64,000 bases of DNA. Origin: Solobacterium sp. GTDB lineage: Bacteria; Bacillota_I; Bacilli_A; Erysipelotrichales; Erysipelotrichaceae. Below are positions 57,977-61,302 of this stretch, piece by piece. The notes beneath the pieces were generated by a model. That model did no database searches and had not been told where the DNA came from. It saw nothing but the letters and a program-made list of their open reading frames with translations. Position 1 is the first letter of the stretch. Each line of letters starts with the position of its first letter. The stretch covers positions 19,005 through 83,004 of the forward strand of contig JAFWNG010000033.1 of NCBI GenBank assembly GCA_017510405.1, written 5' to 3'. Position numbers and translations under genes: made by a program.

Positions 57977-58943
57977 TGTTATCGATGCACTGGAAAACAA
58001 TATCGAGGGTAATGAATGGTATTACTACATTCCCGCCCAGAAGATCATCGGCAGGAACAGCGACGGATTCTACGGGGAGGGCATCGCCAAGGAACTCCCA
58101 ATGAAAGACGTCATCGCGCTGCCGGATCACCGTGCCGTCAATGATTACGGAAACATGGAACGGTTCATCGAATACGAAGTGAAAGGCGAAGCACAGGAAT
58201 GGCTGCGCAACAGCATCCGGGGACGCGGAGCGTTCCGCCGTTTCCGCGGCACTCTGGAACGGTTCCTTCTGACGGAAGACTGGTACGATTATCTGTTTGA
58301 ATGCCACCGCAACACAGCGATCGACTGGTGCGAACAGAACGGCATCGTCTATACCGAAGAAGAACCGGAGGAACCGGAAGACGACTATTACGATGAGGAC
58401 GAAGGGTATGAGGAGGAACCGCAGCCGGCGCCGCGGCAGACGATCGTACGCACAGAGCCTCTCCGCGTCGTGCAGGTCACAGAGCAGAATCTTCTCAATG
58501 TCGTTTTCCCGGCTGCAAAGTTCGCGGTATTCCTCGGCCGGCTGACCGGCAGAAAGATCAAGGAAGATACCGATCTTGCCGAAGAACATCTCCGTGAAGC
58601 GCTCGATGACGGAAAGGCAGTCTATGCCGTCAGTGACCGCGGACGCTTCGTGGCATACTGCGTGCTGTCCCTCAGCCGCAGCGGCATCACGGTGGAAGAA
58701 CTGTATACTGTTGAGAACTTCCGCCGCCGCACAGCCGCCACACTGCTTCTGAAAAAGGCAGAGGAACTGGCAGAAGAGGAAGAGGTTCCCGGCGTTCGTT
58801 TCCTGATCCTGCCGCAGAATACGGAAATGACAGCTTTCCTCGCGGCAAACGGCTACCGGACACTGAAGCACATTGAGATCGTAAAGGACACCGGTACGGA
58901 TCAGAAGATCACAGTCGGTGACAGCGAGTATTATTCCTTCTGA
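57957..58943 (+). CDS. UPF0158-like domain fused to GNAT acetyltransferase
   Basis: L..SIRGRGAFRRFR...W N-domain; acidic linker; LYTVENFRRRTAAT GNAT motif A. Confidence 0.7.
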   Translation: MQVNLYDVIDALENNIEGNEWYYYIPAQKIIGRNSDGFYGEGIAKELPMKDVIALPDHRAVNDYGNMERFIEYEVKGEAQEWLRNSIRGRGAFRRFRGTLERFLLTEDWYDYLFECHRNTAIDWCEQNGIVYTEEEPEEPEDDYYDEDEGYEEEPQPAPRQTIVRTEPLRVVQVTEQNLLNVVFPAAKFAVFLGRLTGRKIKEDTDLAEEHLREALDDGKAVYAVSDRGRFVAYCVLSLSRSGITVEELYTVENFRRRTAATLLLKKAEELAEEEEVPGVRFLILPQNTEMTAFLAANGYRTLKHIEIVKDTGTDQKITVGDSEYYSF

Positions 58944-58947
58944 CTTC

Positions 58948-59072
58948 TGGACAGGGATGTACGGAATACAGTATAATCTTACTGACATCTGAATACGCGC
59001 ACACAGAAAGAAAAGCAGAAAGACAGACCCCGGAGCGTACGCAGCTCAGCAGTTCTGTTTTCTGCTTTTTTC
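58948..59072 (+). other. Promoter plus long hairpin (candidate sRNA or structured leader/terminator)
   Basis: TGGACA-18-TATAAT (58948-58977); stem AAAAGCAGAAA(G)ACAGA/TCTGTTTTCTGCTTTT (59011-59069) with inner GAGC/GCTC hairpin. Confidence 0.45.
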
Positions 59073-59167
59073 ATTTCATGACCGATTTTGTGTGGTTTGA
59101 TTCCCTGTATCGGTCTACATACACTTTCCGTGAGAGGATATTCAGACATCGGCAAGAGGAATCAAAT

Positions 59168-59779
59168 ATGAGTATTTATGGCTATATCCGGGTCAGCTCC
59201 CGGGATCAGAATGAAGACCGTCAGCTGATCGCCCAGAAAGAACTGAATATACCGCTTTCCAATATTTACATCGATAAACAGTCCGGAAAAGATTTTGACC
59301 GTCCCCAGTACCGAAAGCTGATCCGGAAACTGAAAAAAGACGACATCCTGTATGTCAAAAGCATTGACCGTCTCGGCCGGAATTACGAAGAGATCCAGGA
59401 ACAGTGGCGCTACATTACCAAAGAGAAACAGTCTGATATCGTTGTGCTGGATATGCCGCTGCTGGACACAAGGCAGTGCAAGGACCTGCTGGGCACGTTT
59501 ATCAGCGATATCGTTCTGCAGCTGCTTTCCTTCGTGGCGGAGAACGAACGCATCAATATACACACACGCCAGGCAGAGGGGATCGCCGCCGCAAAACTGC
59601 GCGGTGTCCGCTTCGGACGTCCGGAAAAAGACCTTCCCGACCGGTTCGAAGAAGCCTATGCCCTCTGGCTCGGCAATGAATTATCCATGCGCAGGGCAGC
59701 CGACTACTGCGGCATGCCTCTGACAACATTTCGCTCCAAAGTACTGAAACGGAAAGACGGCCGCGGACCGTCTGTCTGA
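59168..59779 (+). CDS. Serine recombinase (resolvase/DNA invertase, Pin/Hin-like)
   Basis: YGYIRVSS (catalytic Ser), DQN.DRQ, SGK.F.RP, SIDRLGRN, ER..I..RQ.EGI..AK..G..FGRP, C-terminal HTH. Confidence 0.95.
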   Translation: MSIYGYIRVSSRDQNEDRQLIAQKELNIPLSNIYIDKQSGKDFDRPQYRKLIRKLKKDDILYVKSIDRLGRNYEEIQEQWRYITKEKQSDIVVLDMPLLDTRQCKDLLGTFISDIVLQLLSFVAENERINIHTRQAEGIAAAKLRGVRFGRPEKDLPDRFEEAYALWLGNELSMRRAADYCGMPLTTFRSKVLKRKDGRGPSV

Positions 59780-59784
59780 TTCGT

Positions 59785-59952
59785 AAAGTGTACGTTTCCG
59801 CATGAGCCTCCGTTCCGGCTGTGTTTTTTCATCATATCACAGTTGTTTTCGACATGTTCCGAAGCAAGAAAAAAAGCGGGATCTTTCCGGCTTCAGACAG
59901 GTTTTATCACAGGAGTTGTTGAGAGGATATCCTTATCGGAAACGTACACTTT
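59785..59952. mobile_element. Candidate invertible DNA segment bounded by perfect 16-bp inverted repeats
   Basis: AAAGTGTACGTTTCCG (59785-59800) and CGGAAACGTACACTTT (59937-59952); 5 nt downstream of the recombinase stop; internal TGTGATATGAT on the minus strand (59831-59841). Confidence 0.75.
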
Positions 59953-59997
59953 CCCGATCACCTCCCCGTACGGTGCCGTGGACAGAGGTGGTCTATC

Positions 59998-60600
59998 ATG
60001 ATAACAGAGGAAAAGAGCAGAGGCTTCCGGCTCTGCATATGCAGGGAATGCTTCAATTACTATCTGCAGAGACCGGCATGCGAAGGAAGAGATATCCTGT
60101 ATGAAGCATACGGGAAACTGAAGGACAGTGAGGAAGTATCGCTGAAGGTGACTTCACCGGCAGAGGAAAGATACCGGTATGACGCATCCAATGCATATGA
60201 AGCAGAACATATACTGACACTTACAGCGCAGCGTTTTCGCCGAAGCAGGAACGGGAATGAAGTAATCACACGACTGCACTTCCGCCGCGGGGATGCTTAT
60301 GAGAAGACAGCCGTAACAGACAGGGACTGTCCGTACTGCGGCAGTGATCTCAGGCAGTATGTTTCAGAGAAAGACAGACACACAGAAGAAGCTGTGATAC
60401 GGGCTTCCGACATGTACCGGAAAGCGGTACAGAAGCAGTATGACAGCAGGAAAGAAACCAGTACAGAACCGGATACGGCGCTGCGGACAGCGTATGCATA
60501 CCGGGATGACGTAAGAAGCGGTCTGGCTGAAAAATGGGCCGCATACATGATAACGGAAGATCCTGCATTCTGCCCGTACCGGCAGGATCAGGAAGAATAA
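59998..60600 (+). CDS. Hypothetical protein with two CxxC motifs
   Basis: GAGGTGG RBS; CREC near the N-terminus and CPYC mid-protein. Confidence 0.7.
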   Translation: MITEEKSRGFRLCICRECFNYYLQRPACEGRDILYEAYGKLKDSEEVSLKVTSPAEERYRYDASNAYEAEHILTLTAQRFRRSRNGNEVITRLHFRRGDAYEKTAVTDRDCPYCGSDLRQYVSEKDRHTEEAVIRASDMYRKAVQKQYDSRKETSTEPDTALRTAYAYRDDVRSGLAEKWAAYMITEDPAFCPYRQDQEE

Positions 60601-60672
60601 AGAAGGAGGAAGAAGATGACAGTTGTTCTTGACGGATTATAGCAGCCTGCATAAGGCAGAAAGGAAACTGCT

Positions 60673-61224
60673 GTGAAAAAAGATCCGAAAAGAAACTACG
60701 AAGTCTATGTGTTCGAAGACGGGGAATTCCGCCTTTTCCGCAGGTGCGGATACGAGGCGGATCTGATCCGTCTGATCGCCCGCTATGATGATCCGGGATC
60801 CAATGGGATATATGAAAACCGATTTCTGGACGATTACAACATGACCGGAAATGATCGTGACCGGAAAGGCGGTATCCGCCGTTACCGTGTGCTGGACGGC
60901 ACCGGACATCCGGTGGATGTACGCAGATGGGAACAGAAGATCCGCAGCGAGACCGGAAGAATGTACGCGCGGTACGGGGACAGATGTGCCTACCGTCATC
61001 GGAACGATCCTGCGCCGCACACAGGCGGATGGAGCGGAACCAGATATTTCCGTCGTGTACGCTGCTGGGCAAATGCCTACCGCCAGGACCGTATTCCGGA
61101 GTATCGCCGCTATGTCCGCAAAAAGGGCATGGTTCCGAATGCGTGGGATACCGAACCGTTCCGTCCGTACAGCCGCAGCTGGAAGGACTGCACAAAGAAA
61201 CGCCGTCAGTGGGAACGGAAGTAA
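60673..61224 (+). CDS. Basic Arg/Trp-rich hypothetical protein
   Basis: GTG start with AAGGA RBS; C-terminal P.P.TG...VR.K...P.AWD...RSWK...KKRRQW; followed by terminator. Confidence 0.7.
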   Translation: MKKDPKRNYEVYVFEDGEFRLFRRCGYEADLIRLIARYDDPGSNGIYENRFLDDYNMTGNDRDRKGGIRRYRVLDGTGHPVDVRRWEQKIRSETGRMYARYGDRCAYRHRNDPAPHTGGWSGTRYFRRVRCWANAYRQDRIPEYRRYVRKKGMVPNAWDTEPFRPYSRSWKDCTKKRRQWERK

Positions 61225-61225
61225 G

Positions 61226-61248
61226 ACAGGAAACGATTCCTGTTTTTT
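61226..61248 (+). terminator. Terminator closing the two-gene unit
   Basis: ACAGGAA-ACGA-TTCCTGT-TTTTT. Confidence 0.8.
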
Positions 61249-61302
61249 CTTTTTGCAGGCAGGAGGGAACAGGGCAGTGTGAAAATGTGATAGGCTAGAG
61301 GC

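Follow-up and report, generated by a model that had tools for sequence, protein, structure and literature searches.

Inversion of a promoter by a serine invertase is a textbook principle. In the Hin/hix, Gin/gix, Cin and Pin systems the enzyme is a small serine recombinase with a C-terminal helix-turn-helix (HTH), the hix and gix sites are inverted 26-bp elements of 12-2-12 architecture with an asymmetric 2-bp core, and inversion needs a recombinational enhancer bound by Fis, a protein that, to our knowledge, Firmicutes do not have. The segment inverted by Hin carries an outward promoter, which places adjacent genes under ON/OFF control, and in Gin, Cin and Pin the recombinase gene lies beside the segment, not inside it. 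These segments measure roughly 1–4 kb. In Bacteroides fragilis the master serine invertase Mpi serves many loci in trans, where it flips promoter-only segments of ∼ 200 bp before surface-structure genes. Sin (Tn552/pI9789) and the β recombinase (pSM19035) are small serine resolvases/invertases of Gram-positive bacteria that work on plasmid and transposon DNA, at composite res/six sites with accessory sites, and act over short distances with the DNA-bending HU/Hbsu in place of Fis. In Clostridia, short invertible regulatory segments lie upstream of surface and signalling genes: the cwpV, flgB, cmrRST and pdcB switches of Clostridioides difficile are turned by the tyrosine recombinase RecV (PMC5903667, PMC11892184), and inverton group 139 of the hCom2 community has been linked to a tyrosine-type family (PMC11892184).

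Here we describe a locus in a 64,000-nucleotide stretch of DNA from Solobacterium sp. (the window) in which a serine recombinase gene is followed by a 156-bp piece that is very probably a flip switch for two genes. With the Hin and Gin systems it shares the small serine recombinase (the HTH is here predicted), the inverted 26-bp 12-2-12 sites with an asymmetric 2-bp core, a perfect repeat that comprises the core plus the inner half-site and a segment whose outward promoter would control adjacent genes, and with Gin, Cin and Pin the position of the recombinase gene beside the segment. It differs from them in an enzyme that is closer to Sin/Bin3, in the length of the segment (156 bp here, 89–229 bp in the family described below), in spacings that fall into helical-turn classes and in a core that is GT within GTGTAC, not AA; no enhancer was identified here. 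Like Mpi, it combines a serine recombinase with a short promoter-only segment, but one recombinase serves one site pair in cis and the site sequence is another. Unlike Sin and β, of which Sin/Bin3 are the closest solved relatives of the enzyme, it would act in chromosomal gene regulation, and no accessory subsite was found. The resemblance to the RecV switches and to group 139 lies in the short segment and its place, not in the enzyme or the site. The literature that we searched holds no description of such a Sin-like serine invertase family and none of GTGTAC-core serine invertons, though Jiang et al. 2019 may list such loci.

Results

A serine recombinase gene followed by an inverted repeat

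The elements of the locus are listed below in window coordinates.

59098–59126, plus strand: predicted recombinase promoter TTGATT-17-TACACT (score 11.2 with a position weight matrix, PWM; above the 90th percentile of the window background)
59107–59132, plus strand: third site TATCGG-N7-ACACTTTCC, degenerate and directly oriented with respect to the right site; lies across the predicted recombinase promoter
59168–59779, plus strand: gene of a small serine recombinase of 203 aa (PF00239, E = 1e-25; phrog_125 'DNA invertase', E = 4e-47)
59778–59803, plus strand: predicted left 26-bp site GATTCGTAAAGT-GT-ACGTTTCCGCAT, with core GT at 59790–59791; holds the repeat arm 59785–59800
59792–59945, no strand: predicted invertible segment between the crossover cores, 156 bp from centre to centre, ∼ 15 helical turns
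59831–59841, minus strand: putative extended −10 promoter TGTG-A-TATGAT (TRTG-type), aimed at the recombinase as sequenced
59850–59905, minus strand: terminator-like hairpin and T7 run upstream of the switch promoter (A7 at 59869–59875 on the plus strand)
59920–59930, plus strand: motif TGAGAGGATAT, with a second copy at 59131–59141, just past the predicted recombinase promoter
59934–59959, minus-strand reading: predicted right 26-bp site GATCGGGAAAGT-GT-ACGTTTCCGATA, with core at 59946–59947; holds the repeat arm 59937–59952
59998–60600, plus strand: orfA, first cargo gene, an orphan of 200 aa with CxxC ... CPYC, a split four-Cys, zinc-ribbon-like arrangement
60673–61224, plus strand: orfB, second cargo gene, 183 aa, basic (pI 10), of the phage family phrog_12793
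61223–61246, plus strand: intrinsic terminator that closes the orfA–orfB unit, a 10-pair stem followed by a T run

The PF00239 match spans residues 3–147 of the recombinase. All its catalytic residues (R8, S10, D67, R68 and R71) are present, and the stretches that hold them, YGYIRVSSRDQ (R8, S10) and SIDRLGRN (D67, R68, R71), are invariant in an alignment of 12 recombinase sequences. The predicted C-terminal HTH gives a sub-threshold match to HTH_psq (E = 0.0018, 18.4 bits versus a cut-off of 20.4), and the alignments of phrog_125 and Gin to the protein extend to residues 187–193. An earlier reading made from the letters of the window alone, the sequence-only reading, had called the enzyme Pin/Hin-type. 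It is indeed a serine recombinase by PF00239 and phrog_125, but a search of the PDB returned Sin/Bin3 as its best solved relative (E = 4e-26), with γδ/Tn3 resolvase at ∼ 1e-16 and Gin at 1.5e-12; Hin and Gin are not its nearest sequence kin, and we do not assign it to the Hin/Gin/Cin/Pin subfamily. A score of 42.3 bits with the NCBIfam model of Mpi (NF009949, equivalog cut-off 272) also places it outside the Mpi family. The gene is the sole member of the Resolvase family in the 3.27-Mb assembly, and its dN/dS of 0.026 against L122, a locus of sister species 2, denotes strong purifying selection.

The predicted recombinase promoter is kept in L122 as TTGAAT-17-TACACT. The degenerate third site that lies over it matches the right site, there read as TATCGG-N6-ACACTTTCC, in two exact blocks of 6 and 9 nt, with one additional nucleotide of spacing and a G-to-A change in the core. 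It was rejected as a family trait (0 of 42 loci versus 2 of 38 controls); it could be left over from an older arrangement or serve as a binding site in autoregulation. At both places equivalent to the two copies of TGAGAGGATAT, the congeneric genome G004 holds GAGAGAATAC(T/C)CAC. Directly past the GNAT stop codon lies a near-consensus promoter TGGACA-18-TATAAT (11/12), then ∼ 25 nt that are conserved, then a strong hairpin terminator and its T6 run; this layout (58948–59075) is kept in sister species 2 and G004 and is a candidate for a ∼ 90-nt small RNA or an attenuating leader before the recombinase gene. An Rfam search of 58900–61300 returned no match. The last recombinase codons contain a perfect palindromic hairpin, AGACGGCCGCGGACCGTCT (59755–59773), terminator-like on the minus strand, which in the OFF orientation could halt antisense transcription that starts at the switch promoter; the hairpin is not kept in G004.

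Starting 6 bp past the stop of the recombinase ORF, a perfect 16-bp inverted repeat (AAAGTGTACGTTTCCG, arms 59785–59800 and 59937–59952) encloses 136 bp, as the sequence-only reading had it. The repeat grows to 24 bp with 88% identity. Among perfect inverted repeats that measure ≥ 14 bp and whose loop is ≤ 300 bp, it is the only one in the 64-kb window, and in 30 shuffles of the window the mean expectation was 0.03 seeds.

A family of related switches defines the site

A profile made from aligned sequences of the recombinase and its relatives was run against the GTDB representative genomes, one for each species, and returned at least 592 related genes, nearly all of them in Clostridia (e.g. 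Oscillospiraceae and Lachnospiraceae). The closest 80 loci were analysed. A GTGTAC-centred inverted site pair is present at 43 of these, where it starts 30–60 nt past the recombinase gene and has its centres 89–229 bp apart. Stacked from outer to inner side, the 86 sites yield the 12-2-12 dyad consensus TTnCAAAAAnGT-GT-ACnTTTTTGnAA, and mirror conservation extends to positions that had not been selected for (T2/A25, Y4/R23 and AAA7–9/TTT18–20).

This dyad decides where the crossover core of the window sites is to be placed. The core had first been set at AA (59785–59786), in an arrangement likened to hixL/hixR of Salmonella. We dropped AA in favour of GT at 59790–59791 on the strength of the 86-site family dyad and the better half-site symmetry: centred on GT, 9 of 12 positions of the right site and 5 of 12 of the left are symmetric, versus 4 and 2 of 12 when centred on AA. 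The predicted recombination sites are thus hix/gix-like 26-bp 12-2-12 dyads with an asymmetric GT centre within GTGTAC. The left site overlaps the end of the recombinase stop codon (59779), with its GT core 11 bp beyond, and the core of the right site reads AC on the plus strand (59946–59947). Scored with the PWM of the family, the left site reaches 18.6 and the right site 16.9, both inside the family range (7.2–36.3) and under its median (28.7). Scores above 14 occur at just these two sites across the 3.27-Mb genome. The family site model matches nowhere else in this genome, in which a single recombinase is predicted to serve a single switch in cis.

Among 51 switches, the spacing between site centres falls into classes of 89, 105–106, 113–117, 125–127, 134–138, 145–148 and 156–157 bp; one locus, at 141 bp, lies off these classes. 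The spacing period is 10.4–10.5 bp (Rayleigh R = 0.63 versus a maximum of 0.43 in 2,000 random sets, related loci not being fully independent) and the mean phase is near a whole number of helical turns. The 156 bp of the window belong to the 156–157 class, in common with G004, L122 and L018. In 27 of 46 family segments, an A/T run of ≥ 5 lies at most 10 bp from the centre, which is no more than suggestive, since the segments are AT-rich. The A7 tract of the window (59869–59875) sits 3.5 bp off the segment centre, and the A7-G run is unchanged in four species.

When 52 segments of the family were scored with a simple matrix for sigma-A promoters, most of them showed one strong promoter with TTGAAA or TTGACT, a 17-nt spacer and TATAAT, often with TRTG upstream. 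Its −10 begins ∼ 32 nt from one segment end. In 34 of the 52 segments this promoter is directed at the recombinase gene and in 8 at the cargo, the remaining 10 being ambiguous; recombinase-facing promoters thus make up 34 of the 42 confident calls. The segments of two pairs of loci (L050/L060 and L055/L089) are alike in reverse orientation only. The cargo is co-oriented throughout and begins 30–100 nt past the right site. It comprises lipoproteins, secreted proteins, zinc-ribbon membrane proteins, a C5 methyltransferase, SPFH-like proteins and sugar transferases, and is typical of phase variation.

Some members of the family depart from the common layout. One congeneric genome has a further switch, L028 (G020:C45), whose recombinase gene is frameshifted and whose TRTG-extended promoter faces the cargo, a zinc-ribbon protein; this second switch is a candidate locked-ON copy. 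In L014, L016 and L018 the recombinase frame continues through the left site into the segment, so that inversion would alter the C-terminal tail of the enzyme.

The segment carries a putative promoter that faces the recombinase

The extended −10 promoter TGTG-A-TATGAT, reported by the sequence-only reading at 59831–59841 on the minus strand and aimed at the recombinase, was recovered by us with the same motif at the same position. The form TGTGnTATnAT is common to the window, sister species 2 and G004, with variation in the flanking bases. Moreover, the element (TGTGATATGAT) occupies the place typical of the family: in the 129-nt interior its position is 98, which is 32 nt from the end. It has no −35 and is weaker than the family norm, with a PWM score of 6.4 versus a background median of 5.6 per 350 nt. 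We therefore assign 59831–59841 as a putative promoter on account of its position, its conservation and the extended −10; the PWM score alone is near background.

Upstream of this promoter, the minus strand of 59850–59905 is predicted to fold as RNA with −19.1 kcal/mol (z = −3.97), and G004 has a canonical hairpin and T7 run at the equivalent place. The search for a rightward promoter gave the same result as before: none better is found within 59650–59998. As the promoter faces the 3′ end of the recombinase gene, the orfA–orfB cargo reads as OFF in the sequenced orientation. On the plus strand, no terminator lies between the recombinase gene and orfA, so that some read-through into the cargo would be possible in the OFF state. 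Mirroring the segment about its cores moves the −10 to 59901–59906, ∼ 85 nt before the ATG of orfA at 59998, in agreement with the distance first proposed for the inverted state.

Evidence for and against inversion

Both orientations can be traced in G004, whose recombinase is 90% identical at the protein level. The locus is syntenic and split over two contigs, with GNAT and the recombinase on C34 and the orfA homologue and the hydrolase on C28; the hydrolase orthologues found in relatives within the genus lack the GNAT neighbour and so gave no information on the boundaries of the island. C34 runs from the recombinase flank through a 13-bp site (AAAGTGTACTTTT) into segment end A, where the contig ends. 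At the start of C28, 109 nt that are a perfect reverse complement of the orfA flank are attached to one segment end; the contig then crosses the segment and, past its other end, enters that orfA flank again. Because a 13-bp repeat is too short to fold the assembly back, the orfA flank would have been joined to both ends in the reads. Judged by this assembly structure, both segment orientations must have been in the G004 sample.

The family provides a second line of evidence, in that the promoter is found in either orientation and that the segments of L050/L060 and of L055/L089 are alike only when one is reversed. A third line comes from sister species 2. Between L122 and the window, the left site is identical at 24 of 26 positions and the right site at all 26, versus 76% identity in the segment interior and 74% in the spacer before orfA. 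Together with the low dN/dS of the recombinase, this is what a functioning recombination system would show, and a relic would not.

All assemblies of the window's species, which amount to ≥ 10 contigs drawn from ≥ 12 samples (L002–L010, L035), contain the sequenced orientation alone. The same is true of sister species 2 (L038, L040, L122) and sister species 3 (L041), so that at least 14 assemblies of three species, the window's own and two sisters, display a single orientation. Contigs L007, L008, L039, L040 and L041 end at or inside the switch; such breaks hint at mixed orientations and prove nothing. A search of the window's own genome for a contig in the alternative orientation gave self matches only, as did one of the L054 genome, which has a contig that ends inside its switch. 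In JGI metagenomes, where the lineage itself is missing, there were 0 matches to the two-arm pattern in either orientation and 0 to the flipped left junction GATTCGTAAAGTGTACGTTTCCGATA. The flipped allele that the first reading proposed to look for in relatives is therefore present in G004, by its assembly junctions, and absent from the contigs of its own species and the two sister species. The single orientation weakens the case for active flipping and does not overturn it, because consensus assemblies show the majority state and the family majority is also recombinase-facing.

A switch that is locked, or flips very rarely, in this lineage would account for the single orientation of these ≥ 14 assemblies, which are independent and come from three sister species. 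Sites and recombinase would persist while the segment is in effect fixed with its promoter towards the recombinase, and any expression of orfA–orfB would stem from read-through that starts at the recombinase promoter; the weak segment promoter, the lack of a terminator between the recombinase gene and orfA and the poor dyad symmetry of the left site (5/12) are consistent with this. However, the low dN/dS of the recombinase and near-invariant sites amid drifting DNA are unexpected if the system is dead, and G004 has the same locus in both orientations. Moreover, minority orientations are hidden in consensus assemblies, and in 34 of the 42 family loci called with confidence the assembled promoter also faces the recombinase. 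We consider a locked switch unlikely.

The segment could, instead, invert mainly to act on the recombinase itself, with antisense RNA, made across the recombinase gene in the sequenced orientation, damping the switching and control of orfA–orfB secondary or absent. Most family members have a recombinase-facing promoter, the palindromic hairpin at 59755–59773, near the 3′ terminus of the recombinase ORF, resembles a minus-strand terminator, and the degenerate third site over the recombinase promoter hints at autoregulation. This hairpin, however, is not kept in G004, eight family loci have a promoter that faces the cargo at an equal distance from the exit site, and the cargo is always co-oriented, 30–100 nt past the right site and of the surface or restriction-modification type. 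An effect on the recombinase as the main output is, to our mind, quite improbable. That the repeat is a chance or structural feature (e.g. a long-range hairpin or a terminator) unrelated to recombination has nothing in its favour beyond the fact that inversion was not directly observed here, and is effectively refuted by a repeat that is unique in 64 kb (expectation 0.03), a site model that matches nowhere else in the 3.27-Mb genome and the same architecture at 43 of 80 related loci.

The genes behind the switch

The payload of 59998–61224 had been described as uncharacterized, and this proved correct for both genes. The orfA protein has four invariant cysteines, with CxxC and CPYC ∼ 95 residues apart. 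Its close homologues are confined to three sister species, in each of which the gene lies behind the same switch. A profile search of 1.84 billion representative proteins gave four matches, two of them longer proteins with the N-terminal 120 residues in common, and scans of Pfam, NCBIfam, PADLOC and PHROG returned nothing significant. The AlphaFold2 (AF2) models of orfA (pLDDT 50) and orfB (pLDDT 40) are of low confidence. A fusion of a sigma factor with orfA (P0004/L037) was discarded as a probable assembly chimera: the lone 1.4-kb contig (ERZ28654247 scaffold_143702) begins with 322 nt foreign to the genome and has a sigma-70 region-2 N-terminus in frame with the last 56 residues of orfA, joined at ∼ 60429.

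orfB belongs to phrog_12793, a family to which no function is assigned. Its residues 55–180 are 30–37% identical to ORFs on four IMG/VR phage contigs of 18–130 kb (L124–L127), and orfB and these phage relatives, which are ∼ 190 aa long, share the C-terminal SWKDCTKKRRQW. On L124 the relative adjoins a GIY-YIG/HNH homing endonuclease gene. No orfA-like gene lies near the relatives on L124–L127. Compared with the sister species, orfB has a dN/dS of 0.27; the gene is missing at the G004 locus.

orfA and orfB are predicted to be co-transcribed up to the terminator at 61223–61246. The spacer between them (60601–60672) is 93% identical between sister species, versus 78–85% for the flanking genes. 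It holds an 8-codon mini-ORF, MTVVLDGL (ATG 60616 to TAG 60642), preceded by a perfect AAGGAGG ribosome-binding site, as well as 18 nt that match the switch promoter region with 83% identity.

Discussion

The recurrence of the architecture in the family, the junctions in G004 and the conservation of the sites support the view, put forward by the sequence-only reading, of an invertible promoter switch that is OFF for 59998–61224. We think it likely that this is a phase-variation switch in which the recombinase inverts the 156-bp promoter segment to control orfA–orfB. Dimers of the recombinase would bind the two 26-bp dyad sites in inverted orientation, and the sites would synapse across a tight DNA loop of ∼ 15 helical turns. 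Cleavage would take place at the asymmetric central GT/AC dinucleotide, and subunit rotation would then leave the 156-bp segment inverted. The segment is predicted to hold one outward promoter of the sigma-A type, with the extended −10, preceded by the terminator-like hairpin and the A-tract. In the sequenced state, transcription from the promoter would enter the recombinase gene at its 3′ end and would leave the cargo OFF. In the inverted state transcripts would start ∼ 85 nt upstream of orfA and run through orfA–orfB to the terminator at 61223–61246, and the cargo would be ON. The copy of the window's species presumably flips today.

The short and helically phased segments argue for a route to synapsis other than the Fis-bound enhancer. 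We infer that a tight loop, phased and probably bent by a protein, brings the sites together, and not a distant enhancer. Bending of the HU/Hbsu type would suit a phased loop of 9–15 turns with a central A-tract. At its furthest, the proposal would be of a Sin-like serine invertase family without a Fis-type enhancer, in which the 9–15-turn loop is bent at the A-tract, probably by HU, and which here gates a phage-derived module of the four-cysteine orphan and the phrog_12793 protein for phage–host conflict, e.g. phase-variable exclusion or defence. We offer this combination as speculation and regard it as doubtful.

The locus is a real, well-formed but conventional switch of a common, little-described family of the Clostridia. 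It provides a clean and compact example of phase variation in cis in an uncultured gut or rumen organism. For a very widespread family of switches, it has allowed us to define the site architecture (12-2-12 round GT in GTGTAC) and a helical-phase rule, with which such switches are easy to find and to orient in metagenomes. Two genes to which no function is assigned, one of them shared with large phages, stand under this ON/OFF switch, which suggests that they encode a costly, conditionally useful trait, and their placement behind the switch provides a handle for testing it.
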